From Isurus oxyrinchus (Eukaryota): DNA of 64,000 nt. The position numbers were made by a program, and so were the translations under genes. Positions 8,888-37,501 of the stretch are shown here, in pieces. Every line of letters begins with the position of its first letter. The stretch's first letter is position 1. Under the pieces are notes generated by a model. That model was not told the origin of the DNA, ran no database searches, and saw only the letters and a list, made by a program, of their open reading frames with translations. The stretch spans positions 806,001-870,000 of the forward strand of contig JANJGN010000052.1 of assembly GCA_026770705.1 (NCBI GenBank). The letters are read 5' to 3'.

Positions 8888-9618
8888 TAAAGAACATTGT
8901 ACAAATTGCACAAAATTTCATCTGATGCCTGTGTCTCATGCTAACATGAAGTTCATGCACACAACAGGAATATTTCTCGCTGTTTCTCTGCAGCAAGACA
9001 GCTTTGGTATCACACCACCCACTGGCAAGAGTGTGCAGCTACAATGTGACATGTTTACATTGGAAATTTCTATTATAAAGATGGACAGAGGAATTCATCT
9101 GATTGGAATACGTGACAACAGGAAGCTATGTCTTAGAGCCAAGAATTTTGCAGCAAAACAAGAATTTTAATCTTTAAATATCTACAGAACAGGCTGAGCA
9201 TTTTAATCACTTGAGTTAATCAATGTAATTTTATTCATAACCCAAATGCTTCTTACAATCTATCGCAGCATGAAAAAGGTGCAGCATTCAGAAAGCACAT
9301 TCCAATCAGAGAACAGAGTTTAGCAACGTCACATTTCTGTTCATTCCTACTCGATGAACAATTTCAAAAGGAAATTGGACGGAAATTGGAAATAAATTTG
9401 CAGGGATACGGGGATAGAGCGGGGGATGGGACTGAGTGCATTGCTTTACAGAGAGACAGCATAGACTCAATGGGCCAAATGTCCTCCTCCATTGCTGGAA
9501 TGACTCGATGATACGGAGATGATTATAACCAGGACACTGACCAGTTTCTTTACAACTTAACACAACATCACACGTTATTTGTCCGCACTGACTGACCAGA
9601 TTGTTGCTGTACAAAGCT

Positions 9619-9758
9619 TCAAACAGTCTGTCGACTTCCTTTCACTGTTTGTCTCTCCCAGACACAGACTCCAGCGATAGTGATAACCACAGCCACAAGG
9701 AATATCACAGCTCGTATTCCCAGGATCAGGATCACATGCAGAATCTCTCCTCCACTGT
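9619..9758 (-). CDS. Activating-type transmembrane and short-tail terminal exon of a Siglec-like gene
   Basis: Acceptor tgtgttctctag, then phase 1 (H)SGGEILHVILILGIRAVIFLVAVVITIAGVCVWERQTVKGSRQTV*. Hydrophobic helix contains Arg; tail has no Tyr; AATAAA(-) at 9230-9235. Confidence 0.85.
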
Positions 9759-11427
9759 CTAGAGAACACACAGAAAGAAATCATCACTGACTCTCCGCTT
9801 TCAATCTCTCACTCTGGCTGAACAATCAAGCTTCATATCACTGCAACATTTGCTGTAATATTGACCCATCCACTGGGATTCAATGTGGAATGAATGTTTT
9901 CATTGTAAACACTCTAAGAGTGGACAATCGGAACTTTCCCCTTAGCGTGGAACATTGGTGAGAATGGATCATTGTGCTGTTGGACTCCCTGTCCAATGTT
10001 TCTCTCCATCGCTGTGTACAGGATTGTGCTGTAGAAAATTCTGGAAACGTTTAGTGCAGGGTGGAAATCCATCTCAGCCATGTGTGCGAATCGAGCAGGA
10101 TTGAGATGGACTCCCCCACGGACTTACACACCCCGCTTAATAAACAGTTCCAATCTTTACCCAGAGAGAGGGGAGAATGTGGAACTCACTCCCACTGGGA
10201 GTGTGTGATGTGAACAGTATCGATGTATTTAAGGGGCAGGAGGGTCGGTAACCAGAGGGACACAGATTGACGAACCGGAGGGGCAGATGAGGAGAATTTG
10301 TTTTGACAGAGCGAGTTGTTGTGATCTGGAAGGTGCTGCCTGAAAGGGCGGTGGAAGCAGATTCAATAGGAACTTTCAAAAGGGAAATTGGATAAACACT
10401 TGAAGGAGGAAGATGGGGGAAAAGTGGAGTGGTGGTTAGTGGATCTGATGGGATAGAACATTGAAAGACCTGGCACAGGCTCAATGGGCTGAATGGCCTC
10501 CTCCTGTGCTGTATCATTCTCCGCTTCCATGATCTCTCCCCCAGTCAGTAACCACTCCAGATCCCTCTTGAAGGTGACAGAGAAACAGCAACCACCACAC
10601 CCACTGACAGCACATTCCCGAAGATCACTACTCTCTGGGAAAAGATGAACTCCCCAACATCCAGCCTATTCCTGCTTCCCAGAGAGTGTAAACCCTTCAG
10701 GGAGGCACTGAGGAAGTTTTCAATAAAATGACATCAAATCCACCGTTTGAGAAATAATTGAATTCCGATGAACTCACAGCTTGTGTAGCAAACTGGGAAG
10801 TAGAGTTGCTGGGAAAGCTGGGAAACACAAGGATTAAGGGCTACAATGCCACCACTGGTGGGAGGCTGTAACTACAGCGTGACGTTTACATAGGCAGTCA
10901 TCATTATAAACAGGGGCATTGCACATAATGGGAATTATGTGCATGGAAATAGTGAGAACATTATGTAAGCTTTTCACCAGCAGGAATTCTCTTCCTAAAC
11001 CTCTCCAACTCTCTCTTACTCTCAGATACACAAAGAAAATCACACAGAATCAGATAAGGAAGAGTTGGGTTGGTGATTCGTCAAAGGGTTAGGTTTCAGG
11101 AAGCTTCTTAAAGGGAGAGAGAGAGTTGGAGACGCAGAGAGTATCTGTGAGAGCCTCTAAGCATCTGAGTGTCTGTAATAGTAATTTCCATATTCTTCCA
11201 TAAATATGAATGGGAACACAAATCCCAGAATTCAGGCCAACTCTCCAGTGCAGTACTGAGGGAGGTCAGGTAACCCATGAGGGAGTGAGTGTTAGTGTTT
11301 GTGTGTGAGTGTGTCTTTGTGTGTGGTCATATATGTGTGTCTGCACGTGTCTATTTAGGTGTGTATGTTCGATGGTGTTTGTGTAGTGTTCAAATCTGAG
11401 AGAGATGTTGAAGTCTGTGTAACTCAC

Positions 11428-14400
11428 GTTCCACACTGATGGTTATGAACCCATCCACTGCTCCATGTTCTTTCTCTGCCACACACTGATAGTCTCCAGT
11501 GTCCCTGGATGTAACATGAGGAATCACCAACCACAGCTCATTGTTGGAACTTGTTCTGTTCATTTGGACATTCAGATGTCATGGCAGGAATCAAGAAGCC
11601 CGTTCACAAGATTACCAACAGAAAGTGAACAACAATTTATACTTAATGGGAAGAGAGTGCTGATTGGTTGGCAAGTGGTCTCTGATAGGTGGAGATGTTG
11701 CCATGGAGAATGGTGTGTGCGAGATGTAAAGTTTAGACAGCTTGTCTCTTCATTCAGCAATAATCAAATAAAGATCAATTAACTTCTATCGACTTTGAAG
11801 CACTTAGAGAGGCCTTAGAATGTGGATACTGAGAACGGGCTGCACTGTCAGAGGGTCAGTGCTAAGGGAGTGCTGATGTAGAATGAATGGTGCATGTAAT
11901 TACCTTGCACAGTTAGTACGAGGGTCCGCTCCGATGAAACAGATGGATATCTCACTCTGCAGCTGAGAGTGTGTCCGTGGTGTTTGAGTGATGGGATCAG
12001 GGTCAGAACAGAAGTATAGGTCAGAGTGACACCATGCTGAGTTACAGTGTTTGAGACTGATCCAGGTACGTCAGTGGGAGTGTCCCAGGTTAAGACAGGT
12101 GCTGCTGTTCCATTGTACGTTGTGTTGAAGGTGCAGCTTACATCCACACGCTTTTCTGCAATAATTTCAGCAGGGAATATCGTGGGTTTATCTGTGAAAT
12201 CTAACACACAGAGAATGGATCATTTTAGAGAAATATAACGTGAAGCATCAGTTCAAATAGAAACCACAGTCCCACACGAGAAAGCACTTTGACAAGGATG
12301 ATATCAGAACTGAGAGGTTACAACGATCAGGAAAGATTTTCTTGCTCTTTGGCAGTAGTGTTTCTGTCTCTCAGCTTAATACACGTTCACTCCGAGACAT
12401 GTGAATTGAGAACACTGGATGAGAGAAGAGGCTGAGACCAGAGATTGGAGTTAAAAGCAGAATACTGTGGATGCTGGAAATCTGAAACAAAAACAAAAAT
12501 TGCTGGAAAGACTCAGCAGGTCTGACAGTATCAGTGGAGAGGAAGACAGGGTTAACGTTTCGAGTCCGTATGACTCTTCATCAGACCAGAGGTTTGAGTT
12601 CACTGGCTTCTCATTTCCTCAGTGATCTGGGTGATTTATCACCTTGTGGTTTGTTGGATCTTGCTGTGCACAAACTGCCTGCTGTGTTTTACATCTGTGA
12701 CTACAATTCAGGAATAATTTCATTGGCTGTGAAGGGATTTGGATTCTCCTGAGGTGGTAAATTGCGCTGCAGAAATGCACATCTTTCTTTTATCGATACG
12801 TCAGACTTTTAAACAGGACAGGAGAGATTGATGGGTGTGGTAATCTGAGAATACAGTTAATGCTTTTCATCAGTGATACTAAAGTGAGTATTGGAGGTTG
12901 CTTTTGGACTGAACTGGAAGCTATCACCAGGTTATTGAGAATCAGACAGTGTGTTATAATAAGCTGTGTTTTGTGTTAATATGTAAATGTCACAGTTTGT
13001 GTTATTCCCATTGAGTGTTGAATGTGAATTGTTGAGTAATTATAACACAGCACTTACCAGAAACGTGAAGCTGGGTTACAGGATAGTAGCTGTAACTATT
13101 CCTGCTGTCAAATTCTATTCTGAAAAAAATAAGGTCCTGCATCTTTCCGTCTGATGTTGTTTATAATCAGGGAACAGTCGCCATCTTTCAGGTCTCCAAA
13201 CAGCCGGGTACGATGGCGGAATCTTTGATCCCTGTGACTGTGACCCTCGGAGTGAAAGGCTATAGACCATTTAGGCTGTAGGGTTCCCATCTATTCCTTT
13301 CAACCAGATTCCGACACGTGATCTCCCTACGAAATGTGATGATTAACTGTAATGACATGGAATTTGTACACAGGAACCTTCCTGCGCTGTCACCTCTCGT
13401 GGAGTGTCGCCTTTCCACTCTTGTGACAGTCCAATTGGAGAGAGAAATGTCAATATTTAACTCTGGAAGGTTTGTAGATCCAGTAGACTCGATATCCACC
13501 CCCTCCATCACTGGGGCACAGTGGCTGCAGTGTGGACCATCTACAGGACACACATGGAATTCCCCAAGGTTTCACAATGGATGGAAGAGAATCCTGGACA
13601 CAGGAGTGGACAAGTTCATTCTACATTGGCTCATGGTCCTCAGGACCCTGTTTAGTGAAGCCAGTCTTCCACCCAACACAGTGTCTACAAGATACACAGG
13701 GAAACTGTGTAAATATCTCATCTCTCTAAACTGACTGGCTTGGCTTCGGTTTAACTTTCAGTATTTTTAAATTTCCATATTGTGGTTGCTATGGTGAAAC
13801 TGTGCAGGAAGAGTGAGGGCTGGACTCTCTGTCTATTCTCACTGCATCTGTGATGTGGTCGTGGTGATTCTCAGTAAAATGAAACCCTCTGATCTCCTCC
13901 ATCCCCGAGGTTTAGGGAGTGAATTCCAGAGCTCAGGCCCCAGGCAGCTGAAGGCACGGCCGCCAGTATTGGAGTGATGGGAATCGGGGGATGGTCAAGA
14001 GGCCGGAATTGGAGTGACACAGAGATCTGGGAAGTTGTTTGGTTGAGTTGCAGGAGGTTTCAGAGATTAAGAGATAAGAATGATCTTTTACAAAGACTGT
14101 TAAACATAAATCTGTCTGAGCTGATGATGATATTACCTTGGGAAAGTGACAAGAGGAAGTAGATTTCCCGATCATCGTCCACTCCCAGATATTCCATCCA
14201 CTTCTCACTCTCAAGCTGTGAAAGAGAAAGGAGTTAATGAGACGTCACCTCTTGTCCGAATGCTCTCGAGAGATCAGAACTGCTTTTAGACAATGTCTTC
14301 ACAGACTAATTTGATTCTCTGTGGGATGATAGGTGCTCTGCAGAGAGTTACAAGGCTTTAAGAAAGAAGAACATTGAAGGATTTGCATTTCTATAGCACC

Positions 14401-17836: not shown

Positions 17837-17953
17837 TTATAAATTCCCATAAACAGAATCCTCAGCAAATTCACAGTTTGCGTAAAGATCATCATCTGTA
17901 TCAGGATTGACTCCGCGGTTAGATTTCATTTCCAGATCCTTCTCATCTTTCTT
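17837..17953 (-). CDS. Orphan terminal cytoplasmic exon with tyrosine motifs
   Basis: Acceptor ttctattacag, then phase 0 KKDEKDLEMKSNRGVNPDTDDDLYANCEFAEDSVYGNL*. SVYGNL fits the ITIM consensus. Confidence 0.7.
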   Translation of the reverse strand, partial: KKDEKDLEMKSNRGVNPDTDDDLYANCEFAEDSVYGNL

Positions 17954-18049
17954 CTGTAATAGAAACAGAAATGATCAGAGTGACAATCAGAGTGATCAGT
18001 GTTTAGTATTATTGATCCAAATCGAAAATTCCACCCATAATAGATACAT

Positions 18050-18453
18050 TAATTATTGATACTGAACAGGGTTTGATTATTAATACTGAACGGGGTTTGA
18101 TTATTGATTCTGAACGGGGTTTGATTATTGATACGGAACGGGGTTTGATTATTGATTCTGAAGAGGGTTTGATTATTGATACTGAACGGGGTTTGATTAT
18201 TGATTCTGAACGGGGTTTGATTATTGATACTGAACGGGGTTTGATTATTGATTCTGAAGAGGGTTTGATTATTGATTCTGAACGGGGTTTGATTATTGAT
18301 TCTGAACGGGGTTTGATTATTGATACTGAACGGGGTTTGATTATTGATACTGAACGGGGTTTGATTATTGATTCTGAACGGGGTTTGATTATTGATTCTG
18401 AACGGGGTTTGATTATTGATACTGAACGGGGTTTGATTATTGATTCTGAACGG
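18050..18453. repeat. 24-bp minisatellite (ttgattattgattctgaacggggt), about 17 copies
   Basis: Direct tandem units; 8-aa periodicity in the ORFs. Confidence 0.95.
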
Positions 18454-18586
18454 TGTTGGGTGTGAGTTTGGTTGGGTTTGGGAGTGACTGTATAAAACAT
18501 TGCAGATACAGGACTGGAGCAGCCATATCAATAACCAGGCTACTGGAGCAGCTGAGAGGCTGGGGATCCTGTGGTGTGTGACTCAC

Positions 18587-18691
18587 CCGATTCCTCAAAG
18601 CCCAACCACGCTCACAGTTTTCATAAACAGGACCTCGATATTCATCAACACGATGGTTCGATTTGATTCCTGCTTTCCCCTCGCCTCTCTT
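18587..18691 (-). CDS. Orphan internal cytoplasmic exon (phase 0-0)
   Basis: ctctattacag|KRGEGKAGIKSNHRVDEYRGPVYENCERGWALRNR|gtgagt, 105 nt. Its acceptor region resembles that of 17837-17953. Confidence 0.65.
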
Positions 18692-19037
18692 CTGTAATAG
18701 AGATGGAAATGGACAGAGTGACAATCAACATGATGTGTATTCGGTGTTGGGTTTGATTATTGGGGAGAGAGTTCCAGATTTCCACTCCCCTTTGTGTGAA
18801 GAAGTGCTTCCTGACATCACCCCTGAACGGCCTGGCTCCAATCTGAAGTTCCGGCCCCCTTGTTCTGGACTCCACCCGACCCCCACCACCCACCCCCACC
18901 CGAGGGAATAGCTTCTCTCTATCGACCCTATCGAGTGTTTAATCAGTTTGAACCCCTCAGATAGATCACTCCTTAATCTTCTAGACCTGAGGGGATATAA
19001 TCGTAGACTGTGTGTAACCTGTCTGCATAATTTAACC

Positions 19038-19330
19038 AGAAAGATGTTCTGTACAACAGACTTGAGCCTCACACCCTGATCTCAATAATCAGTAGAAATC
19101 TTTCAAAGGCATCAATCATTGGAATCTGTCTTTATAAAGTCACAACATCAACAAAGGACGGTGTTGGTGGTGGAAGTGAATTCCAATCGTTCCGTTACTT
19201 ACCCAGTACCTGTCCGACTGCTCGCCTGGGGAGGAACTGCCCACACGCTCTGCTTGGGCTGAATGACCTCTTCCTGTGCTGCTCCCTCTGTGTATTTAAT
19301 GAGAAAGGGTTGATGTGTCTCTGTGAGTCA
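19038..19330 (-). promoter_or_regulatory. Duplicate of the Siglec promoter, noncoding exon 1 and intron 1 start
   Basis: Near-identical to 29866-30160: donor after 19203, GGAA ETS-like site, AT-rich box near 19295. Confidence 0.6.
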
Positions 19331-20229
19331 AATCATGAATTGGGGAACAATTGTGAAAACCCTTTCATTGAAACGTAGGGTCTTAGTGTTGTGTTGTAAG
19401 CAAACCGTTAACCCTTTGTGTCCTGACTCTGTGACGTGATTCCTGTGTAAAGCTGAGCAGTCGTTGAGCAAGTTTCATTTCACTGCTCATTCCAGGTGTT
19501 GAGGTGGATCTTCTGAAGGAGCAGATGTTGCTCAGCGCTCCTTAAAAATGTGAGACACTGAACAACGTGTAAGAGGACGAGAGAGAGAGAATGAGAAGGA
19601 GAGCATTAGTGGAGATAAGAGAGAGAGTGAATGCGACAGGGAAAATGGAAAGAGATTGCATTCACTAACAAAAGAAAGGTTTTCATTTATATAGCACATT
19701 TCGCATCATCAGGAAGTCACAAGGTATTTTATGGTCCAGGTCAACACTGCCAGTTACAGGACTGAGTTGTGAAACAGTGAGTGTTGGATGAGATGGTAAA
19801 CAGTGAGTGAACATCAAAGCTCTTCAGGGGCTGTGAAGGGTTTTGGGTTGTGAAAGTTGCTATAGAAACGCAAGTTCTTTCGAAAAGGAGAGAAAGTTGA
19901 AGAAAACATGTTCAAAGACAACCAATTAAACCTTCACACTTACTTTCTCACACACTTGAAGATGAAGAATCCACTCAGTCCAACACTCAAACAGATTCCA
20001 GCTCCAAGCAATCCTGCTTTCCATTCATTGGAATCTCGCCCTGTAAAATCAGCCAATGAATGACTCCGGTACAGTTTGAGAATGGTTCCCTATGTACATG
20101 TAGTAATTCTGAACTTGTGAAGTGATATTGTCTATGCATGAAAGGTCTATACAAATAACATTTATCTATGTAATATTTATTGATAATATCCATGTACATG
20201 CAGGTTTCTATAAGGAGGATTCACATATA

Positions 20230-21262
20230 ACAGGTGCCAAGCTGCTGAGGTGACACACAGGACTACATACACACCAAACAGCGGAAACAACATGCTATAG
20301 ACAGAGCAAAGCGATCCCACAACCAACGGGTCAGATCTAAGCTCTGCAGTCCTGCCACATCCAGTCATGAATGGTGATGGACAATTAAAGATCTAACAGG
20401 AGGAGGATGTTCCACAAATATCCCCATCCTTAATGATGGGGGAGCTCAGCACATCAGTGCAAACGACAAGGCTGAAGCATTGGCAACCATGTTCAGCCAG
20501 AAGTGCTGAGTGGATGCTCCATCTCGGCCTCCTCCAGAGGGTCCCAGCATCACAGATGTCAGCTTTCAGACAATTCGATTGACTCCACGTGACATCAGGA
20601 ATCAGCTGATGATACTGGATACAGCAAAGGCTATTGGCCCTGGCAACAGCCCGGCAACAGGAAATAATGTGGCTACAAATGCGGGTAAGAGGCTGGGAAC
20701 TCTGTGGTGAGTCATTCAACTCCTGACTCTCCAATGCCTGTCCACCATCGACAAGGCACAAGTCAGGATTGTGATGGAATAATCTCCACTTGGCTGGATG
20801 AGTGCAGCTCCAACAACACTCAAGAACATCAACACCATCCAGGAGCAGCTTGTTTGATCGACAGCCCATCCACCAGCATGAACATTCATACCCTCCACCA
20901 CTGGCACACAATGGCAGCAGTGTGTGCACCATCTACAAGATGCACTGCAGCAACTCACCAAGGCTCCTTCGACAGCACCTTCCAAACTCTTAACCTCTTC
21001 CACCAAGACAGTTCCAACTCAGTGTGGTGTGTGATTTGGAAGTGAACTTGAGGTGGTGGTCTGCCCTGGGACTTGGAACTATATCGGCCGTTCCTTCACC
21101 ATCACTGGGACAAAATCCTGGAACTCCCTCCCTAACAGCACTGTGGGTGCGCCTACACCACATGGACTGCAGTGGTTAAAGAAGGCAGCTCACCACCACC
21201 TTCTCAAGGGGCAGTTACAGATGGGCAATAATTTCTGGTCTTGTCAACAATGCCCACATCCC
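20230..21262 (+). mobile_element. CR1-group LINE fragment with internal deletions
   Basis: Same family as 4107-5190 (acaaatatccccatcct...), with the 3' end ctccctccctaacagcactgtggg. Confidence 0.8.
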
Positions 21263-21304
21263 ATGAGCTAATAACACGAGAACGTTCAATTCTGTGTAAC
21301 TCAC

Positions 21305-21586
21305 GTTCCACAGAGATGGTTATAAATCCCTCCACTGCTCCATGTTCATTCTCTGTCACACACTGATAGTCTCCAGTGTCCCTGGATGTAACGTGAGGAA
21401 TCACCAACCACAGCTCATTGTTGGAACTTGTTCTGTTCATTGGGACATTAAGATGTCGCCACGTCAGGTTAGAAGCTGGGAAGCTCTCGACAGAGCAGAT
21501 TATCACTGCAGAATTCCCCTCAATTATATTGATCGATGAAGCATTAATCATATCAAGAGAAGTAACTGAGAGATTCCGTGGAGCAT
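21305..21586 (-). CDS. Siglec-like gene B, C2-set Ig exon (last C2b copy)
   Basis: 282 nt, phase 1-1, AG/GT sites; APRNLS..IICSVESFPASNLTW..DTGDYQCVTENEHG..ISVE. Confidence 0.9.
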
Positions 21587-22328
21587 CTAAAAACAAATAA
21601 AGATTTTAATGTGAGCAAGCACAGTGCACAGCAAGACTCCATGCATCATCTCTCTGTATCTGATATTGGAATGCATTTCCAGGTACCTTCCCTCAGGAAA
21701 AAATACTGCCACATTTATAATGGGCACTTCCTATGTAAACTGTCACACTGCAGTTGCATTCTCCCACCAACAGAGTTGCTGTCCACCTAGAATGAAAGAA
21801 ACATCCTTTAACACTCTCAAGATGCCCCCAAGGGATTGAAAGCCCGTGAATTGTATTTGATTGATGGAGCACTGAGGAGTAAATCTACAATTCTCCGTTC
21901 AGGAAGTTGCTCATCCAATTCAGGATCTTGCTGATCTGGAGTTTACCTTCCTTCAACACAGAATCAGAGCTGATACCGAGACTCCAGTGCAGCACTGAGA
22001 GAGGGGAGGGATCTCACACTTGTGTGTGTGTGTGTATTTCTGCACAAGTGAGTTTGTATTTGTGTGTATGCGCGTGTCTGTCTGCGCATGTGTGGGCATG
22101 CGTGTGTATGTGGGTCTTGTGTGTACATCTGTGCTTGAATGAGTGTGTGTGTATACGTGTGTCTACGTGTGCGCATGAATGATTGTACGTGTGAGTTGAG
22201 TTTGTGTGTGTTTCTGTGTATGTGTTTGAATGTATGTTTGTGTGTAAACGTGCATGTTTGTGTCTACACATGAGTGTTTTTGCATGTGTGAGTGTGTGTG
22301 TGTGATGTAGATGTCTGTGTGCACTCAC

Positions 22329-22610
22329 ATTCCACAGTGATGGTTATGAATCCCTCCACTGCTCCATGTTCATTCTCTGCCACACACTGATAGTCTCCAG
22401 TGTCCCTGGATGTAAGGTGAGGAATCACCAACCACAGCTCATTGTTGGAACTTGTTCTGTTCATTGGGACATTAAGATGTCGCCACGTCAGGTTAGAAGC
22501 TGGGAAGCTCTCGACAGAGCAGATTATCACTGCAGAATTCCCCTCAATTATATTGATCGATGAAGCATTAATCATTTCAAGCGAAGTAAATGAGAGATTC
22601 TGTGGTGCAT
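22329..22610 (-). CDS. Siglec-like gene B, C2b exon copy
   Basis: 282 nt, phase 1-1, intact C-W-DxGxYxC Ig core. Confidence 0.9.
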
Positions 22611-23210
22611 CTAAAAACAAATCAAGTGTTTAATGTGAGCAAGCTCAATTTACAGCAAGACTCCATGCATCATCTCTCTGTATCTGATGTCTGTATGCAA
22701 TTCCGGGTACCTTCCCTCCTTATAACTTCCACTGTCAAATTTATAATGGACACTGCCTATGTAAACAGTCAAACTGCAGTTACATTCTCCCACCAGTAGA
22801 GGTGCTGTCCACCTAGAATGAAAGAAACTTTCACATCCTCTGGATTTTGCCAAGGGATTTACGGGAATGAATTGTATTTGATCGATGGAGCACTGAGGGG
22901 TAAATCTACAATTCTCTGTTCAGGAGGTTGCTCATCCAATTCAGGGTCTTGCTGATCTGGAGTTTACCTTCCTTCAACACAGAATCAGAGCTGATACCAA
23001 GACTCCAGTGCGGCACTGAGAGAGGAGAGGGACCTCATGTGTGTGTATGTGTTTGTGTTTATGTTTCTGCACAAGTGAGTGTGTTTGTGTGAGTATGCAC
23101 GCATGCGTCTGTGTGTGCGTGTGTGTATGTGTTTGCTCATATGTGAGTGTGTCTTTGTGTATATTTCTGTGCATGAGTGAATGTGTGTGTATGTTTATGA
23201 GTATGTGTGT

Positions 23211-23273
<63 letters not shown>

Positions 23274-23299
23274 TGATGTTGAAGTTTGCAGTAACTCAC

Positions 23300-23581
23300 G
23301 TTCCACAGTGATGGTTATGAACCCCTCCACTGCTCCATGTTCATTCTCTGCCACACACTCATAGTCTCCAGTGTCCCTGGATGTAACGTGAGGAATCACC
23401 AACCACAGCTCATTGTTGGAACTTGTTCTGTTCATTGGGACATTAAGATGTCGCCACGTCAGGTTAGAAGCTGGGAAGCTCTCGACAGAGCAGATTATCA
23501 CTGCAGAATTCCCCTCAATTACATCAATCGATAAAGCGTTAATCACACCAAGAGAAGTAATTGAGAGATTCCGTGGTGCAT
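23300..23581 (-). CDS. Siglec-like gene B, C2b exon copy
   Basis: 282 nt, phase 1-1, intact Ig core. Confidence 0.9.
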
Positions 23582-24181
23582 CTATAAACATAGAAAGATT
23601 TTAATATGAGCAAATATAGTGCACAGCAAGACTCCATGCATCATGTCTCTGTATCTGATGTCTGAATGCATTTCCAGGTACATTCCCTCAGGATAAGAAC
23701 TTATTTCACATTTACAATGGGCACTGCCTATGTAAACTGTCACACTGCAGTTACATTCTCCCACCAGTGGAGGTGTCCATCTAGAATGCAGGAAACTCCC
23801 TTTCAGATCCTCAGGATGTCCGCAAGGGCTTCAAAGGCAATGAATTGTATTTGATCAATGGAGCACTGAGGGGTAAATCTACAATTCACTGTTCAGGAGG
23901 TTGCTCCATGCAGTTCAGTGTCTTGATGATCTGGAGTTTACCTTCCTTCAACACAGATTCGGAGCTGATACTGAGACTCCAGTGCAGCACTGGGAGAGGA
24001 GAAGGAACCCACATGTTTTTGTGTGTGTATGTGTGTGTTGGCTTGTGTGTGTATGTTTCTGTAAAATAAGGATCTGTGTGTGTGCACGCACTCATGTGTG
24101 TTTGTGTGTGTGTGCGCACGTGTGTCTGTCTATGCATGTGTGTGTGTGTGCTTGTGTGAGTTGAGATTGTGTATGTTTCTG

Positions 24182-24232
<51 letters not shown>

Positions 24233-24265
24233 GTGTGAGTGATGTTGAAGTTTGCATTAACTCAC

Positions 24266-24358
24266 ATTCCACAGTGATGGTTATGAACCCCTCAATTATA
24301 TTGATCGATGAAGCATTAATCATATCAAGCGAAGTAAATGAGAGATTCTGTGGTACAT
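24266..24358 (-). CDS. Siglec-like gene B, internally deleted C2b mini-exon (31 aa)
   Basis: 93 nt encoding DVPQNLSFTSLDMINASSINIIEGFITITVE; both splice sites intact and frame preserved. Confidence 0.7.
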
Positions 24359-24577
24359 CTAAGAACAATTAAAGATTTCATTGTGAACAAGACTCAGTAC
24401 TGAGGGAGTGCTGCAGTGTTGGAGAATCAGTATTCAGGGACTGCTGCAGTGTCAGAGGTGAATTTGTATCAGTTAAAGACTATTGATTTGTTGCTAAACG
24501 CAATGCAGTTGTGGGATCTTGCAATGTACTATGTAGAGCTTTCTAGCTAATGTAGAATGAAGGGTGTCCATTCTTAC

Positions 24578-24874
24578 CTTGCACAGTTAGTACGAGGGTC
24601 CGCTCCGATGAAACAGATGGATATCTCACTCTGCAGCTGAGTGTGTGTCCGTGGTGTTTGAGTGATGGGATCAGGGTCAGAACAGAAGTATAGGTCAGAG
24701 TGACACCATGCTGAGTTACAGTGTTTGAGACTGATCCAGGTACGTCAGTGGGAGTGTCCCAGGTTAAGACAGGTGCTGCTGTTCCATTGCACGTTGTGTT
24801 GAAGGTGCAGCTTACATCCACACGCTTTCCTGCAATAATTTCAGCAGGGAATATCATGGGTTTATCTGTGAAAT
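24578..24874 (-). CDS. Siglec-like gene B, first C2-set exon (C2a)
   Basis: 297 nt, phase 1-1; DFTDKP..VSCTFNTTCNGTAAPVLTW..YTSVLTLIPS..HGHTLSCRV. The extra Cys matches the Siglec V-C2 interdomain bond. Confidence 0.92.
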
Positions 24875-25732
24875 CTAACAGACAGAGAATGGATCCTTTT
24901 AGAGAAATATAACGTGAAGCATCAGTTCAAATAGAAACCACAGTCCCACAAGAGAAAGCACTTTTACAAGGATGATATCAGAACTGAGAGGTTACAATGA
25001 TCAGGAAAGATTTTCTTGTTCTTTGGCAGTAGTGTTTCTGTCTCTCAGCTTAATACACGTTCACTCCGAGACATGTGAATTGAGAACACTGGATGAGAGA
25101 AGAGGCTCAGACCAGAGATTGGAGTTAAAAGCAGAATACTGCGGATGCTGGAAATCTGAAACAAAAACAAAAATTGCTGGAAAGACTCAGCAGGTCTGAC
25201 AGTATCAGTGGAGAGGAAGACAGGGTTAACGTTTCGAGTTCGTATGACTCTTCATCAGACCAGAGGTTTGAGTTCACTGGCTTCTCATTTCCTCAGTGAT
25301 CTGGGTGATTTATCACCTTGTGGTTTGTTGGATCTTGCTGTGCACAAACTGACTGCTGTGTTTAACATCTGTGACTACAATTCAGGAATAATTTCATTGG
25401 CTGTGAAGGGATTTGGATCCTCCTGAGGTGGTAAATTGCGCTGCAGAAATGCACATCTTTCTTTTATCGATAAGTCAGACTTTTAAACAGGACAGGAGAG
25501 ATTGATGGGAGTGGATAACCTGATAATACAGTTAATGCTTTTCATCAGTGATATTAAAGTGATTTTAGAGGTTGCTTTAGGACTGAACTGGAAGCTGTCA
25601 GCAGGTTATTGAGAATCAGACAGTGTGTTATAATAAGCTGTGTTTTGTGTTAATATGTAAATGTCACAGTTTGTGTTATTTCCCATTGAGAGTTGAAAGT
25701 GAATTGTTGAGTAATTATAACACAGCACGTAC

Positions 25733-26098
25733 CAGAAACGTGAAGCTGGCTTACAGGATAGTAGCTGTATTTATTTCTGCTGTCAAATTCTATTCTGAAA
25801 AAATAAGGTCCTGCATCTTCCCGTCTGATGTTGTTTATAATCAGGGAACAGTCACCATCTTTCATGTCTCCAGACAGCCGGGTCCGATGGTGGAACCGAG
25901 GTAACTCGTGACTGTGATCCTTGGAGTGAAAGGCTATAGACGATGTTCTCCATTCCTCATTAGTAAACCAGATTCCAACTCGTGGTTGCTTTTCCAAATG
26001 TGATGGATAACTGTAATGACATGGAATCTGTACACAGGAACCTTCCTGCGCTGTCACCTCTCGTGGAGTGTCACCTTTCCACTCTTGTGACAGTCCAA
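25733..26098 (-). CDS. Siglec-like gene B, V-set sialic-acid-binding exon
   Basis: 366 nt, phase 1-1. EW..GSCVQIPC..GDCSL..DAGPYFFRIE..NKYSY shows the B-E strand Cys pair, no F-strand Cys, and the essential Arg. Confidence 0.93.
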
Positions 26099-27460
26099 CT
26101 GTGGAGAGAAATATCAATACTTAATTCTGGATGTTTTTTCAATCCATTAGACTTGATATCCACCCCCTCCATCACTGGGGCACATTGGCTGCAGTGTGGA
26201 TCATCTACAGGACACACAAGGAACTCCTCAAGGTTTCACAATGGATGGAAGAGAATCCTGGACGCAGGAGTGGACAAGTTCATTCTACATTAGCTCATGG
26301 TCCTCAGGACACTGTTTAGCTTTTTTTCAAATTATTCATTCATGGGATTTATTACCCATCCCATGTCCATCAGAGGTATTTAAGAGTCAACCACATAGCT
26401 TTGGGTTTGAAGTGACATGTAGGCCAGACTGGGTAAGAGTGGCAGATTTCCTTCCCTATAGGTGATCAGTGAACCAGGCTTTTTAATCCCATTCATCTGC
26501 TGTGATAGGATTCACACCCAGGGCCCCAGAGCATCACCCTGGGCCTCTGGAATACTAGCCCAGTGACAATACCTCTCTGCTACCACTTCCCCTTAGTGAA
26601 GCCAGTCTTCCACCCAACACAGTGTCTACAAGACGCACCAATTGAGATCCATTCAGTGCTGATTTACAAGACAGGACAATGGATTAGGAGCCCTCAGAAC
26701 TCCCCCCATTATCACCGTCATGAATCACTAATTAGCCTAACATTCCTGTCTGCTCTTCAACACAGCTGATTGGCTAATCTGATTCAATCTGATTGGTGTT
26801 CATTCCCTCTTCAATGTTTAAGGAATCACCAATCACTCGGCCTCTAGTTATTCTCCTGCCCACAAGAGGGAACATTCTCTGTCTACCCAGTCAATCAAAA
26901 CCTTTCATCTAAACCTAGTGGTGCTTGAGTATATAGTCGGGAATCCAGGGCAATGGAGCCTCAGGAGAAGAGATGGAAACCCTGTGAGGTGGAACGTCAC
27001 TGAGGCCATCCGAGTTGAAGCGACTTTTGGAGAGAATTCCGAGGCAAGATCTTCGAAGTTGAAGACTGGAATCCCTCATGAGAGAAACAGAGTTTCAGTG
27101 AGATTGGTTGACTGACAGTGTTCACTGATGTCCGGGTGGGTTGTTGTGAAATCCATGGGATCTGTCTTGGTCGCGTTTACAATTTAATGAGTAATGTGGC
27201 TGTGAGACCACAGTTTGCCTGTTAATTCACATGAGCTCATATTAACCCAGCATGTTAGGGTATAAGGTGGACATTGTGAATTATTTTATCTTTCTGAGCT
27301 GGTGCAGTAAAGTTTATTTTTGTTTGTTTAAAAGCCATGGAATCTTGTAGCTCTATTCTCTTTGCAAGCGTCTTAAATCTCAAACCTCGTCTACTTGAAA
27401 CAAAATATTATTGGTTCCTAACTGTAAATTATCAAAAAAAATTGGGTGCCTGTTCCTCCA

Positions 27461-28685
27461 TCAGCAACTCTTCAGAATCCTGCTGAAGTCACGGATATTT
27501 CAGAAGGACAGGGAACAAGAGGTTTCTGGTATGAGCGTTTTGTGTGGGGCCCAGTTCAGTTTGAACAAATAAACAACACCATCTTTGAAAGTCATGAACC
27601 CACCACAGCGGCACCTCCGACACATGCAGAGCTCAGGCGAGAGGCGCTTTGTTAGTGTGTTTCACAGTGTCTGCTGGAGTAGGGTCAGTGCTGAGAGGGT
27701 CTGCTCAAGGATCATAACAACCTGCACTTGCACCTTCCAAGTAATAAGATTTTGTAAATGTATTCATTCATGGGATGTGGGCGTCGCTGCCAAGGCCAGC
27801 ATTTGCTGCCCATCTCTAATGTCCCGTGACATAATCTCTGTAGCAGAGTAGAGACAATCATGATCACTCAGGATATTTGACATCTATCCACATGAGCAGC
27901 TTAGGCTTCCTTCTCTCTTTCAGTTATCTTACTCCCTTATTGAAGTTTCTAGCATGGTGAGAACTGGATGGTTTGCTCGGACATTTCAGAGGAACCACGT
28001 TGCTATGAGTCTGGAGTCACATGTAGGCCAGACCAGATATAGACGGCAGATTTCCTTCCCTAAAGGCCATTAGTGAACCAGATGGGTGTGTATGACAATC
28101 GATGATAGTTTCATGGTCTCCATTACTGAGACTAACTCTCATTAGTGTAAACAGAGTGAACAGTTTTCCATTGATCCCACCTTTCCCGTTCTCTCCGGTG
28201 TTTTACACACTATTGCTCGATAATTTGATTCTGCCAAGGACCCCTTGGAAAATCATGGACCCCAGTTAGACAACCAATGGAATAAGGAATCTCTTTGGAT
28301 TCTCATTGTCTAAGGAATCTCTTTGGATTCTCATTGTCGAAGGAATCTCTTTGGATCCTCATTGTCTAAGGGATTATTTCTGATCCAAACCCTATATTGT
28401 TGTATTGTTGATTCCGATGCAGCATTGTAGACTGACTTGTCCCCAAGCTCAGCACTGACCCTACTCCAGCAGACCCTGTGAAACACACTAACAAAGCGCC
28501 TCTAGCCTGAGCTCTGCATGTGTCGGAGTTGCCGCTGTGGTGGGTTCATGAATTTCAAAGATGCTGTTGTCATTTGTTTTGTTCAAACTGAACTGGGCCC
28601 CACATGAAACGCTGATACCAGAAACCTCTTGTTCCCTGTCCTTCTGAAACATCTGTGATTCAGCAGGATTCTGAAGATTTGCTGA
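27461..28685. repeat. ~235-bp inverted repeat (27461-27695 / 28448-28685) in the gene B leader-V intron
   Basis: Reverse-complement match; ORFs 27446-27655(+) and 28488-28958(-) both end HEPTTAAxPTHAELRxEALC. Confidence 0.9.
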
Positions 28686-29558
28686 CAAGGTTCTTAAATT
28701 GTCTGATTGTTGAATGATATAACACAGGAGGAGCTTGTTTGACCCATCGTGCATGTGCTGACTCTTTCCCAATTCCTCTCCAGCACCTTTCGCACATCCC
28801 TGCAAATTTCCCTTCAAGTATTTATCCAGTTCCCCTTCTGAAAGTTCCTGTTGAATCTGCTTCCACCGCCCTTTCAGGCAGTGAGTCAATGGTCTCTCTC
28901 TGAGCTGCAAAGTGCTCAGATTCTGTGAAATTTGAACTCTGCAGCAGATCAGAATCAATCATGATAACTCAGAATATTTGACAGTTTTACACACAGACAG
29001 CTTTGCCTCCCTTCTCTCTTTCAGTTATCTTGCTCCCTTATTGAAGTATCTAGCAAGGTGAGAATGGACAGGAAGTGTGACACTGAACAGCCTGTCTATT
29101 CTAGGAGCTGCTGTGTTGTCTTCATGGGAAGTTTTGAATAAAGGCAGCAAAGGACACAAATTTCAGGTTATTGCTATCGGATAACTCTCATTAGGATAGG
29201 CTTCACCCACCAGGTTTTATCCCTGCTTCTCTATTCAATCCATCAATCCCCATTGCTCACTGACCAACGTCTGACAGCACCTGAATTTTGAGATTCTGCT
29301 CTCGCTGCTACAAACCTGCCTATCCCTGTACACTTCTCCAGCCCCTACAACACTCCAAGGCCTCTGCTGTCCTCCAATTCTGCTGTCAGACAGGGTGTCA
29401 GTGTATATCAGTGAGCAGAGGAGTGATGGATGAATGGGACATAGTGTGAGTTTGTACACTGGCTCACTGCTAAATCAGTTCCCAATTCGAGGTCAATAAG
29501 AATGATCTTTTACAAAGACTATTAACCATAAGTCTGTCCGAGCTGATGATGATATTAC

Positions 29559-29598
29559 CTTGGAGAAGTGACAGGAGGAAGTAAGATTTCCCGATCAT
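29559..29598 (-). CDS. Siglec-like gene B, leader (signal peptide) coding exon
   Basis: Encodes MIGKSYFLLSLLQ+G|gtaata (phase 1), joining the V exon as VGLSQEW. Acceptor at 29641-29642. Confidence 0.85.
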
Positions 29599-30030: not shown

Positions 30031-30170
30031 CCAGGACCTGTCCGACTGCTCGCCTGGGGATGAACTGCCCACACGCTCTGCTTGGGCTGAATGACCTCTT
30101 CCTGTGCTGCTCCCTCTGTGTATTTAATTAGAAACGGCTGATGTGTCACTGTGAGACAAAATGAGGAAGT
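30031..30170 (-). promoter_or_regulatory. Gene B noncoding exon 1 and proximal promoter
   Basis: Donor gtaaat after 30031. The exon is conserved in three copies (14983, 19203, 30031). GGAA cores near 30100 and 30165; AT-rich box near 30121. Confidence 0.55.
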
Positions 30171-34326: not shown

Positions 34327-34575
34327 TCAGTTTCTCTTGAATCTGATCTGTGCGTATTCCGTCTGCTCTTCCCTGTGGACAGACCCATCACCACTGGGCA
34401 CCCTGAAGACTTGGGGATTGGCGTAGAGAAACTCGTCGGGATTGTCGGGGTTCCCATGTCCAGCATTGCCTCCCACTGCACATTCAGAGACACCCCGGGG
34501 AGCTGGGGTCTCCCCCTCGCTAGTTGTGTCTCTGGTTGTGTTCCGGGGCTCAGTAATCAGCACGTTCTGTTTACC
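34327..34575 (-). CDS. Orphan Siglec-type terminal cytoplasmic exon
   Basis: ctctgtag|GKQNVLITEP...EFLYANPQV...TEYAQIRFKRN*, phase 0. AATAAA(-) at 33714-33719. Confidence 0.8.
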   Translation of the reverse strand, partial: GKQNVLITEPRNTTRDTTSEGETPAPRGVSECAVGGNAGHGNPDNPDEFLYANPQVFRVPSGDGSVHREEQTEYAQIRFKRN

Positions 34576-35133
34576 CTACAGAGAAATGGAAACAGAAGGC
34601 ATCCTCACATCATTTACTGGCACTGATAGGGTTAAAATATTCTGCAGCCTCGTTAGTGTCAGTCGTGGGTCAGTGGGTTTAACCCTCTCTCACATGTCTT
34701 ATGAAAGAAAACACCTATGGCAGTGCAGTGCTCCCTCAGTACTGACCCTTCGATAGTGCAGCACTTCCTCAATGCTGACCATCCAACAGTGCAGCACTCC
34801 CTCAGTACTGACCCTCCGACAGTGCAGCGCTCCCTCAGTACTGACCCTCCAGCAGTGCAGCGCTCCCTCAGTACTGACCCTCCGACAGTACAGGTCTTCC
34901 TCAGTACTGACCCTCTGACAGTGCAACACACCCTCAGTACTGACCCTCTGACAGTGCAGCACTCCCTCAGTACTGACCCTCTGTCAGTCTCGCACTCCCT
35001 CGGTAATGGCTCTGGCGAGTGTCGGCTTGGATTCTGCACTCAGGTGCCTGGTGTGAGGCTCAATAACATGAATCTTGTAATCAGAGAGAGGATGAGAGAG
35101 AGAGAGAGAGAGATGAAGGGTCAGAGACTGAGC

Positions 35134-35884
35134 GTTATGAATCTATTAATGTATGTAATGTAATTGGAAATTGTCTATTTAAAAAGAGGTTTAGTCTGTG
35201 GGTGTGTCTGTGTGTGTTTTAATTGGATTAAAGCCAGCCAGTCTGGGTATTTGATGTATAGTAGTTTTGAGATGTAAACTGAGGCATAAAAATTTGTATT
35301 TTTAAACAGAGCATTCAAAACCTGAGAGTGAAATCTTAAACCAATCAACATTTATTTTATTGATAAAATTGATACTATGACAGAGGATTTATTGTTTGAA
35401 GGAATGGAGTTCAAAGGTCCTGATGATACAATGAGAATTTACATTGAAAGAGAAGCACTGGGTATAACTTGAGCAGTTTTGTGTGTGCAGAGCAGAGGCT
35501 TGTAACATCAAAGCAGCTGTAAGCCTACACCTGTCTGCAAAGGAACCAAAGTGAAAGGAACCTCATTTGGAATTTGTGAGGTGAAAATGCTTCGCTTGGA
35601 ATCTGCTTAAAGTCTATGGGTTGTCTTAGAGGACGTTAGTTTGGGAATTTGTTAAAAAGTTATGATAGTACTAGCTTGTAGCCATGTGCATATGATTAAC
35701 TTGTGAAAATTAATAAATGTCTCATGTAGTTTGATATAAACCCATCTCAAGAACTGATGGTCTTATTCCTGAATTTAGAGCTGCATCTCAAACATTCCAC
35801 TGGGAAATATAGGTTATGACAGTTGTTTAAAGTTTCCCTCTGGGATTTTAAACAACAGCCTTTACCAGTTGCTGTGTCATAACA
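35134..35884 (+). mobile_element. Solo-LTR-like insertion
   Basis: Inverted termini gttatga...tcataac; homologous to 30688-31513. Confidence 0.6.
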
Positions 35885-36019
35885 GAGAGACAGCATGATA
35901 CTGAACCATTGCTGACTCCACAGGTACAAATCAGTGGGTAACTGGGCTGGGAATCTGGGACATGTGTTGTCTACACACTGAGATTGAAGCTTTGGAGTGA
36001 GTGTAAACAGCTCCTGTAC

Positions 36020-36101
36020 CTGGTGCTTCACAGAGAGTGGACTGGGGGTCAATACAATGTCACTGGTCCCTGAAACTCTCTCCTCCATTGCTGTCTTTCT
36101 C
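36020..36101 (-). CDS. Juxtamembrane cytoplasmic exon (phase 2-0) upstream of tail exon 34327-34575
   Basis: ttattacag|G RKTAMEERVSGTSDIVLTPSPLSVKHQ|gtacag; phase fits between a TM exon and the phase-0 tail exon. Confidence 0.65.
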
Positions 36102-36234
36102 CTGTAATAACAAAATATCACACTGTGGTTATCATATAGCAGAGAGTCAGTGTAGCACAGACACAGAGCCCACTGTAATCTTAGACCAACGACTGGGACT
36201 GTCTCTTTAAATCAGTTCTATACAAAGCACAGAA

Positions 36235-36700
36235 TCAAGAAGCTTGACACCATCCAGGACAAAGCAGCCCGATTGATCTACACCCCATCCCCCACATTAA
36301 ACATTCACTCCCTCCACAACGAACACACAGTGGAAGCAGTGTGTGTACCATCTACAAGATGCACTGCAGCAACTCAGCAAGGCTCCTTCAACAGCACCTT
36401 CCAAACCCACGACCTCTACCATCTAGAAGGACAAGGGCAGCAGACACATGGGAACACCACCACCTGGAAGTTCCCCTCCAAGCCACTCACCGTCCTGACT
36501 TGGAAATATATCATCGTTCCTTCACTGTCACTGGGTCAAAATCCTGGAACTCCCTCCCTAACAGCACTGTGGGTGTACCTACACCACATGGACTGCAGCG
36601 GGTCAAGAAGGCTGATCACCACCACCTTCTCAAGGGCAATTAGGGATGGGCATTAATGCTGGCATCACCAGTGACAGCCACATTCGATGTAAGAATTAAA
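36235..36700 (+). mobile_element. LINE 3' end
   Basis: KLDTIQDKAA..CTIYKMHCSN..RTRAA..SKSWNSLPNS. Confidence 0.8.
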
Positions 36701-37020
36701 AATCTCACATCTCAATGTATTTATTGGGATCCTCCTGCACACACGCCCTGTCGAAGGAGCCTTTGTGGTTCCATTGTTAATCAAAGCAGATCAGACTTAC
36801 TGCAACTACTTGCATTTATATAGCACCTTTAATGTAGCAAAATGTCCCAAGGCTCATCCGGGAATTGTTAGTCACATCTTCACCTGACTCTGAGGCACAT
36901 GAGGAGATATAAGGGACAGGAGACCAACAGCTGAGTCAACAAAGTCAGTTATTAACGGGCATCTTAAAGGAGGAGCTGGAGATAGAGAATGAGTGACAGA
37001 CACAGAAAGAAAGACAAAGA

Positions 37021-37055
<35 letters not shown>

Positions 37056-37252
37056 TGAATCTCTATCCCCAGTGGCTCAGCATCCAGTCCTCTCTGGAGA
37101 AGCATTTCATTCCAAACCACAGCAACCGCAGCCCAATCGCATCCCTTCCTCCCTCTCTCCCCCTCTCCCCCAGTGGGTTGTTTCCTGTTCCCAGGAATCT
37201 CAATCACTACCCCCACCCTCACACCTCCTCACTCCCACTCCCCATTTCTCAT

Positions 37253-37501
37253 TCAGTTATGCTCGAACCTGATCTGTGCGTATTCCGTCTCCTCTTCCCT
37301 GTGGACAGACCCATCATCACTGGACATCCTCAATACTTGGGGATTGGCGTAGAGAAGGCCGTTGGGATTGTCGATGTGCCAATGTCCAGCATCGCCTCCC
37401 AATGCACCTTCAGAGAGACCCCGGGGAGCTGGGGTCTCCCCCTCACTAGTTGTGTCTCTGGTTGTGTTCTGGGGCTCAGTAATCAGCACGTTCTGTTTAC
37501 C
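37253..37501 (-). CDS. Siglec-type terminal cytoplasmic exon; candidate exon 3 of a HAMP-Siglec chimera
   Basis: ctctgtag|GKQNVLITEPQNTT...LLYANPQV...TEYAQIRFEHN*, phase 0. AATAAA(-) at 36720-36725. Confidence 0.8.
   Translation of the reverse strand, partial: GKQNVLITEPQNTTRDTTSEGETPAPRGLSEGALGGDAGHWHIDNPNGLLYANPQVLRMSSDDGSVHREEETEYAQIRFEHN

Follow-up and report, generated by a model that had tools for sequence, protein, structure and literature searches.

An arginine-bearing transmembrane exon as the predicted activating end of genes in a shark array of CD33-like Siglecs

Introduction

Paired Siglecs have been described from primates. In the Siglec-5/14 and Siglec-11/16 pairs, near-identical V domains are carried by genes with ITIM-bearing tails and by genes with a basic transmembrane (TM) residue and a short tail, sequence is exchanged between the members, and the activating member is frequently lost (PMC13358205, PMC6288428 and PMC2832619; these and the papers below are cited from excerpts). 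The same excerpts have all described human activating Siglecs signalling via DAP12. Siglec-15, which has a V-C2-TM layout with a basic TM residue and is present in fish, couples to DAP10/12 by a TM lysine that is conserved in fish, and fish are described as regularly having only four Siglecs, without inhibitory CD33-related ones (excerpt of PMC7226832). Another point of comparison is provided by the FcR-gamma/zeta-coupled receptors CD89, NKp46, NKp30 and TCR-alpha, which combine an upper-TM arginine with a short motif-free tail; partners of FcR-gamma/zeta (CD89, NKp46 and TCR-alpha) are marked by an arginine close to the top of the helix, and partners of DxxxT adaptors, e.g. DAP12, by a central TM lysine (excerpt of PMC13107469). 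The excerpt of PMC8455134 holds one general mention of Siglecs. The literature that we searched (titles and the beginnings of abstracts, with subscription journals mostly outside) yielded no description of paired Siglecs in sharks. Shark or fish Siglec clusters may be mentioned in the comparative surveys of Cao and co-workers and of Bornhöfft and co-workers, and the families described here may also appear in a whale shark Supplementary file 9. What is already known is that automated NCBI models of the shark proteins exist: the Siglec-12/13/14-like and CD33-like models P0025, P0027, P0040, P0043, P0069 and P0093 are the same proteins with the same arginine-bearing end (91-96% identity for Carcharodon). 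The names of these models are automatic and imply no orthology, and the models carry no functional-class annotation.

Here we describe a 64,000-nucleotide stretch of Isurus oxyrinchus DNA (contig JANJGN010000052.1, positions 806,001 to 870,000; hereafter the window), in which a first-pass annotation had proposed a paired activating/inhibitory Siglec system. We consider it probable that the TM exon flagged in this window, the Arg-TM exon, is a spliced anchor, that it is one of the three types of gene end present in a shark array of CD33-like Siglecs several megabases long, and that its arginine couples intact copies to an ITAM-bearing dimer of FcR-gamma (or CD3-zeta), by which they are predicted to be activating counterparts of the copies with ITIM tails. 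The flagged copy itself is a pseudogene. If this is true, a large paired array in sharks would mean that the sister group of the bony vertebrates evolved or retained pairing at a far larger scale than in primates and probably through another adaptor.

Results and Discussion

The Arg-TM exon and its splicing

The flagged exon and the remains of its gene lie on the minus strand:

9597-9758, minus strand: Arg-TM exon, with a phase-1 acceptor, TM helix, 12-residue tail, stop codon (9619-9621) and a probable 3'UTR donor after 9597
9712-9714, minus strand: codon (CGA) of the intramembrane arginine
11428-11580, minus strand: C2 (I-set-like) remnant, 5'-truncated, the second C2 exon of this copy, skipped in the splice joint seen
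11904-12200, minus strand: open first C2-set exon, which is joined to the Arg-TM exon by splicing
13058-13434, minus strand: V-set exon with a lost acceptor, an in-frame stop and a frameshift
14137-14175, minus strand: leader exon, one base short (39 nt, not 40) and frameshifted

A polypyrimidine tract and AG precede position 9758, and the exon opens in phase 1 and translates as SGGEILHVILILGIRAVIFLVAVVITIAGVCVWERQTVKGSRQTV. Its best hydrophobic windows of 21-25 residues begin at Val8 (mean KD 2.9); Arg15 is thus the eighth residue of a stretch of 23-25 residues, preceded by seven hydrophobic residues, which places it in the outer third of the TM helix. The cytoplasmic tail, ERQTVKGSRQTV, is 12 residues long and free of tyrosine. 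Translation and hydrophobicity windows therefore agree with the earlier description of a TM helix with an internal arginine and a 12-residue Tyr-free tail. The copy itself is a pseudogene: the leader is frameshifted, the V exon is without its acceptor and is interrupted by a stop and a frameshift, and there is no open leader-V-C2-TM frame.

Splicing of the exon is seen in other members of the family. Four runs were examined from 22 candidates (three studies, organisms A and B; that the runs are RNA is a guess), and in all four presumed-RNA runs contigs join the first C2 exon to the Arg-TM exon with GT..AG ends (9758 to 11904) and skip 9759-11903. A single 972-nt contig of run X7 carries V, C2 and Arg-TM exon together. 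The run contigs derive from Siglec family members and not from the flagged copy, and the joint covers the Arg class only. The first-pass annotation would have been undone by an exon never spliced to Siglec exons; the exon is so spliced in four of four presumed-RNA runs, which holds for the family and not for the flagged copy. A GT donor 22 nt past the stop (9597) is conserved; contigs of X4, X5 and X7 break there, and read-through is seen in run contigs as well. A SINE-like stretch lies in the 3'UTR of the flagged copy (9355-9500). Splicing of the Arg-TM exon on to an ITIM tail was considered and rejected: among the matches listed, the stop precedes the donor in 39 of 39 loci chosen by their likeness to the flagged exon and in 16 of 16 copies of the census described below.

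A CD33-like ectodomain

The V exons of the family score as V-set and Ig_CD22 in Pfam, C2-set_2 is also matched, and the Pfam matches, gene models and V-C2-TM contig all give a type I TM layout in which V-set is followed by C2-set. When the full-length Arg-class protein P0043 is compared with the PDB, its best matches are Siglec-5 (3e-28), CD33, MAG, Siglec-10 and Siglec-8. The Siglec cysteine pattern (a B-E intra-sheet pair plus the inter-domain cysteines of V and first C2) aligns with that of CD33 and Siglec-5, and all 77 V exons retain three cysteines and the A-strand tryptophan, the count being made after three V rows overlapping census loci had been removed as duplicates. The essential arginine of the F strand also aligns with that of Siglec-5 and CD33. 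It is kept in most open V exons of each class (Arg class 42 of 45, ITIM class 13 of 15, third class 7 of 8), and an excess loss of this sialic-acid arginine in activating copies is not seen when the Arg class is set against the ITIM class. Siglec-15 shares the layout, but has lysine rather than arginine, is conserved rather than expanded and matches the shark ectodomain much more weakly (7e-11 with P0043, far behind CD33, Siglec-5 and MAG).

All 92 of the longer homologues are elasmobranch proteins, the closest named ones being lamniform. In the 59-row V tree described below, the shark proteins form one clade and the nine rows of tetrapod Siglecs another (100/99 each, with the bootstrap not fully settled), and by this alignment the family appears separate from tetrapod Siglecs. 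The V-domain phylogeny proposed earlier as a check thus places the sharks apart, in a tree without Siglec-15 or mammalian MAG/CD22 rows; with 122 columns its deep forks are unresolved, and the best PDB matches are CD33-related.

Shared V domains on opposite ends

The genes fall into an Arg class, an ITIM class and a third class. The best ITIM-class match of an Arg-class V domain has a median identity of 93% (41 of 45 at 90% or above, maximum 99.2%), the V exons of L013 and C52:662759 being an example of an Arg/ITIM pair at 99%, the median among ITIM-class V pairs themselves is 78%, and distinct V subtypes are common to both classes. In a V tree of 105 rows, 16 changes are needed to place the Arg label on its 20 rows, close to the 18.7 that shuffled labels need on average (26 of 500 shuffles are as low). 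Monophyly of the Arg-class V domains is rejected by the AU test (19 rows vs 40, p 1.75e-77) on a 59-row subset comprising all Arg rows, a random 16 of 43 ITIM rows and a random 8 of 27 third-class rows. Within-species sister pairs of Arg and ITIM V domains occur in both catsharks, which is the pattern of concerted evolution described for the primate pairs (excerpt of PMC6288428). Paired receptors are recognized by linked genes, near-identical ectodomains and opposite end-types, and all three are found here, with a basic TM and short motif-free tail in one class and ITIM/ITSM in the other.

Within the window, the candidate inhibitory partner named earlier consists of two pieces:

54881-55129, minus strand: ITIM+ITSM tail exon, with LFYANI (ITIM) and TEYTQI (ITSM)
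56969-63038, minus strand: ectodomain exons of a TM-less gene upstream of this tail (V, C2 and five more C2, one with a stop)

The leader and first V exon of the TM-less gene lie beyond the window end, and no TM or juxtamembrane exon was found between its last C2 (56969) and the tail, where a 139-nt masked stretch is unreadable. The ITIM/ITSM assignment of the tail is borne out by its two motifs; its usefulness as a partner is not, as no TM exon of its own was found. Because the flagged copy is a pseudogene and the tail is without a TM exon of its own, the two do not form a working pair. The proposed paired Siglec system consequently stands at the level of the family, on shared V domains and opposite end-types, and falls for the flagged exon together with the tail at 54881. 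Inner V exons of tandem-V genes, which start with EPSQEW (e.g. 62670-63038 in the window), often have an extra cysteine in the BC loop.

Copy number and decay

Exact motifs of 22-24 nt, whose reversed controls gave 0, occur 213 times for the Arg-TM exon, 215 times for the ITIM-class TM and 101 times for the third-class TM in the whole assembly. By these counts there appear to be hundreds of near-identical Siglec-type genes, compared with two pairs in primates, and Arg-anchor ends are about as many as predicted-inhibitory ends. Part of this number may be an effect of the assembly, through uncollapsed haplotypes on unplaced contigs; we regard this as a serious possibility, if the less likely one, as the array occupies no fewer than 15 contigs and two of the 36 loci that gave a long alignment have a partner at 99.98% identity, whereas one 4.17-Mb contig by itself has 64 Arg-TM, 66 ITIM-class and 32 third-class motifs (counted from listings), the median nearest-neighbour identity is 99.0% over 4.2 kb, and the gene order of the units varies.

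An unbiased, contiguous census of 864 kb contains 16 Arg-TM, 12 ITIM-class and 9 third-class exons, the types alternating and lying in both orientations. Fully intact genes make up 3 of 16 in the Arg class (5 of 16 if one skipped exon is allowed) versus 10 of 12 in the ITIM class, with a Fisher p of 0.002, or 0.009 with the 5 of 16, values that are optimistic because the copies are related. Among the Arg-TM census exons, five of 16 have no V exon and one has Gln for Arg. The gene at G000:C52:721059-737390 is an Arg-class gene complete apart from a TM Gln replacing the Arg, and the V-less leader-C2-TM(Arg) genes at G000:C52:1050938, 1202276 and 1253706 have open frames; judging from their exons, such V-less genes could be ligand-blind receptors. 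Of the 39 loci chosen for their similarity to the flagged exon, 18 have one or more open V exons together with an open C2 and show no damaged leader, the leader being in range for one of these 18. An intact copy lies, for example, at G000:C71:420231-424808. Within the genome, Arg-TM exon copies have pN 0.010 and pS 0.006 and their upstream intron is 1.4% divergent; they are too recent for selection on the exon to be visible. Nor is positive selection on V shown by uncorrected Nei-Gojobori counts (pN/pS 0.72 overall and 0.91 in BC-CC').

ITIM-class genes (e.g. G000:C52:662759-679702) often have two or three tandem pairs of juxtamembrane and tail exons, some ITIM+ITSM and some ITSM only, which are possible alternative 3' ends. 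More diverged third-class genes at G000:C34:15129540-15190723, on a 19.9-Mb scaffold, are possibly the anchored end of the array.

Origin of the exon

The shark genes differ from the primate pairs in forming a separate clade, in having one to three tandem V exons and in an Arg-TM exon that is unrelated to the inhibitory TM exon; no likeness was detectable between it and the two uncharged TM exons of the array. One Arg-TM motif match lies elsewhere, on a 118-Mb scaffold (C21, 89.44 Mb). This copy is ~70% identical, its homology extends ~500 nt into the upstream intron, and it sits in frame in a V-C2-TM gene with an in-frame stop in V (G000:C21:89443380-89447625; L146:3380-7625). In the PDB, the V part matches nothing but SLAMF6 (E 0.001) and SLAMF5 (0.018), and the gene has the SLAM/CD2 character of a Cys-less V with extra cysteines in its C2 exon as well as at the junction with the TM exon. 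The C2 exon alone best matches CEACAMs, and support for a SLAM/CD2 gene is therefore moderate; an atlas search with this exon named no family. At this moderate strength, the gene is probably a SLAM-family pseudogene with a diverged Arg-TM exon. Thirteen other SLAM-like loci have no Arg-TM exon within 1.5 kb, a distance beyond which their TM exons may lie. A second expanded family, consisting of near-identical SLAM-like C2 exons, is present on unplaced contigs (L151-L162; C62, C87, C133, C219, C225, C790, C795, C962 and others).

In the bamboo shark, the Arg-TM end is found on CD22-like models (P0095-P0098, automated and possibly chimeric). Since the exon occurs on Siglec genes and on a SLAM-type gene (and on the CD22-like models), it has moved between receptor families at least once, and its presence on a SLAM gene would be a rare DNA-level trace of an activating end doing so. 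It is found in galeomorph sharks only, absence elsewhere being weak evidence; among named matches there is no Arg-class protein from Cetorhinus, Mustelus, Heterodontus, squalomorph sharks or rays. A bolder proposal, to which we give somewhat less than an even chance, is that galeomorph sharks invented an activating cassette, a phase-1 Arg-TM exon with its intron, that moved among CD33-like Siglecs, CD22-like Siglecs and a SLAM gene and could plug any ectodomain into FcR-gamma. Such a cassette would have driven the ~1:1 array, with ~200 ends of each kind, activating and inhibitory, and with its tandem V heads shuffled; this would be an innate repertoire, encoded in the germline, much larger than the 15 human Siglecs.

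The activating end could instead be of old gnathostome origin, its exon sharing ancestry with the one in Siglec-15 or in some other activating receptor and being kept while the V exons were homogenised, an idea that concerns origin only and is compatible with our preferred reading. It gains from the ability of concerted evolution to hide the age of a pair on V trees (excerpt of PMC6288428), from the alignment of the PDB Siglec-15 chain with P0043 to residue 257, past the TM arginine, and from the same exon ending the CD22-like bamboo shark models. We nevertheless think it unlikely, as the TM exon, which has no Pfam match, when searched alone found only shark proteins (nine matches) and, up to an E of 10, nothing in the PDB, the tetrapod basic-TM Siglecs P0172, P0174 and P0178 have lysine in a helix that is built differently, and Siglec-15 is far below CD33, Siglec-5 and MAG on the ectodomain. 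The independent origin in this lineage that the first-pass annotation had thought possible is likely, though not proven, because V trees cannot date a TM exon when V exons are exchanged and the TM exons of mammalian Siglec-14, -15 and -16 were outside the comparison.

The TM arginine and its predicted adaptor

The TM arginine is invariant in 10 of 10 aligned proteins from Carcharodon, two Scyliorhinus species and Chiloscyllium, and together with its LGIRA context it is invariant across three shark orders. The tails of the Arg-class homologues from Carcharodon, Scyliorhinus and Chiloscyllium are 7-17 residues long and Tyr-free. The genome was searched for adaptor TM exons of FcR-gamma, the zeta family and DAP10. 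FcR-gamma exons are present (L121 and L122, 91% to a named shark FCER1G), as is a second zeta-family TM exon (L120), which is read as CD3-zeta. Because the arginine is near the top of the helix, as in CD89, NKp46 and TCR-alpha, and because FcR-gamma/zeta exons are present, FcR-gamma/zeta is favoured as the putative adaptor, by analogy and from the exon sequences. The placement is that of FcR-gamma partners, whereas the primate pairs use DAP12; unlike CD89, the shark proteins have a Siglec-type ectodomain and a hydrophobic residue one turn above the arginine, where CD89 has polar residues.

The same paired system might use DAP12 or DAP10, as do human Siglec-14, -15 and -16, and the basic TM residue of human Siglec-14 is an arginine, not a lysine. 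The choice of FcR-gamma is weakened by the use of DAP12 in human activating Siglecs, which reviews report (excerpts of PMC13358205 and PMC6288428), and Siglec-15, with its DAP10/12-coupling lysine, adds a precedent from a receptor conserved in fish (excerpt of PMC7226832). We consider these adaptors distinctly improbable here, given that the outer third of the TM is the position described for FcR-gamma/zeta partners (excerpt of PMC13107469) and that the DAP10 profile search of the genome gave no clear match (best E 0.41), a weak test in which short exons are easily missed.

A reading of the Arg-class genes as decoys that do not signal, or as passengers carried along by segmental duplication, with an arginine that snorkels at the membrane surface or is tolerated, is very improbable in our view, even though most census Arg-class copies are broken or V-less and a within-genome selection signal is absent, as the arginine and LGIRA are invariant in three shark orders and are both kept in the SLAM-family copy that is only ~70% DNA-identical, seven hydrophobic residues precede the arginine, and genuine activating Siglecs typically have null alleles at high frequency (excerpt of PMC6288428).

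Returning to an FcR-gamma- or CD3-zeta-coupled paired system, we infer all of the steps from ligand binding to signalling. The V domains would bind sialic acid via the F-strand arginine, the TM arginine would pair with the Asp pair of the adaptor (an FcR-gamma or CD3-zeta dimer), and Syk-type activation by Arg-class copies would oppose SHP recruitment by ITIM copies. V exons would be swapped between classes by conversion or unequal crossover, so that activating copies would track the ligands of inhibitory ones, and activating copies would break more often than inhibitory ones. The array would then offer a direct test of the counter-trap model, with V heads in common, activating copies that decay faster and just one residue to be mutated.

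Neighbouring genes in the window

Two further sets of Siglec-type exons lie in the window:

17837-29598, minus strand: intact third-class Siglec gene with an uncharged TM, the nearest intact neighbour of the flagged exon
29559-29598, minus strand: its leader exon
25733-26098, minus strand: its V exon
24578-24874, minus strand: its first C2 exon, followed by three more C2
19944-20040, minus strand: its TM exon
19203-19287 and 17837-17953, minus strand: its cytoplasmic exons (SVYGNL, an ITIM-type motif)
34327-37501, minus strand: orphan 3' end of the inhibitory class, with a juxtamembrane exon (36020-36101) between two tails (37253-37501 and 34327-34575, the latter ITSM only)

The tail of the third-class gene reads DLYANC/SVYGNL, with SVYGNL at its end. 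The first cytoplasmic exon of third-class genes (19203-19287) is identical at 83 of 85 nt to an exon at 30031-30115, and an exon like the latter sits ~450 nt upstream of leader exons. This likeness suggests that a 5'UTR exon may have been reused as third-class coding sequence, or the reverse.
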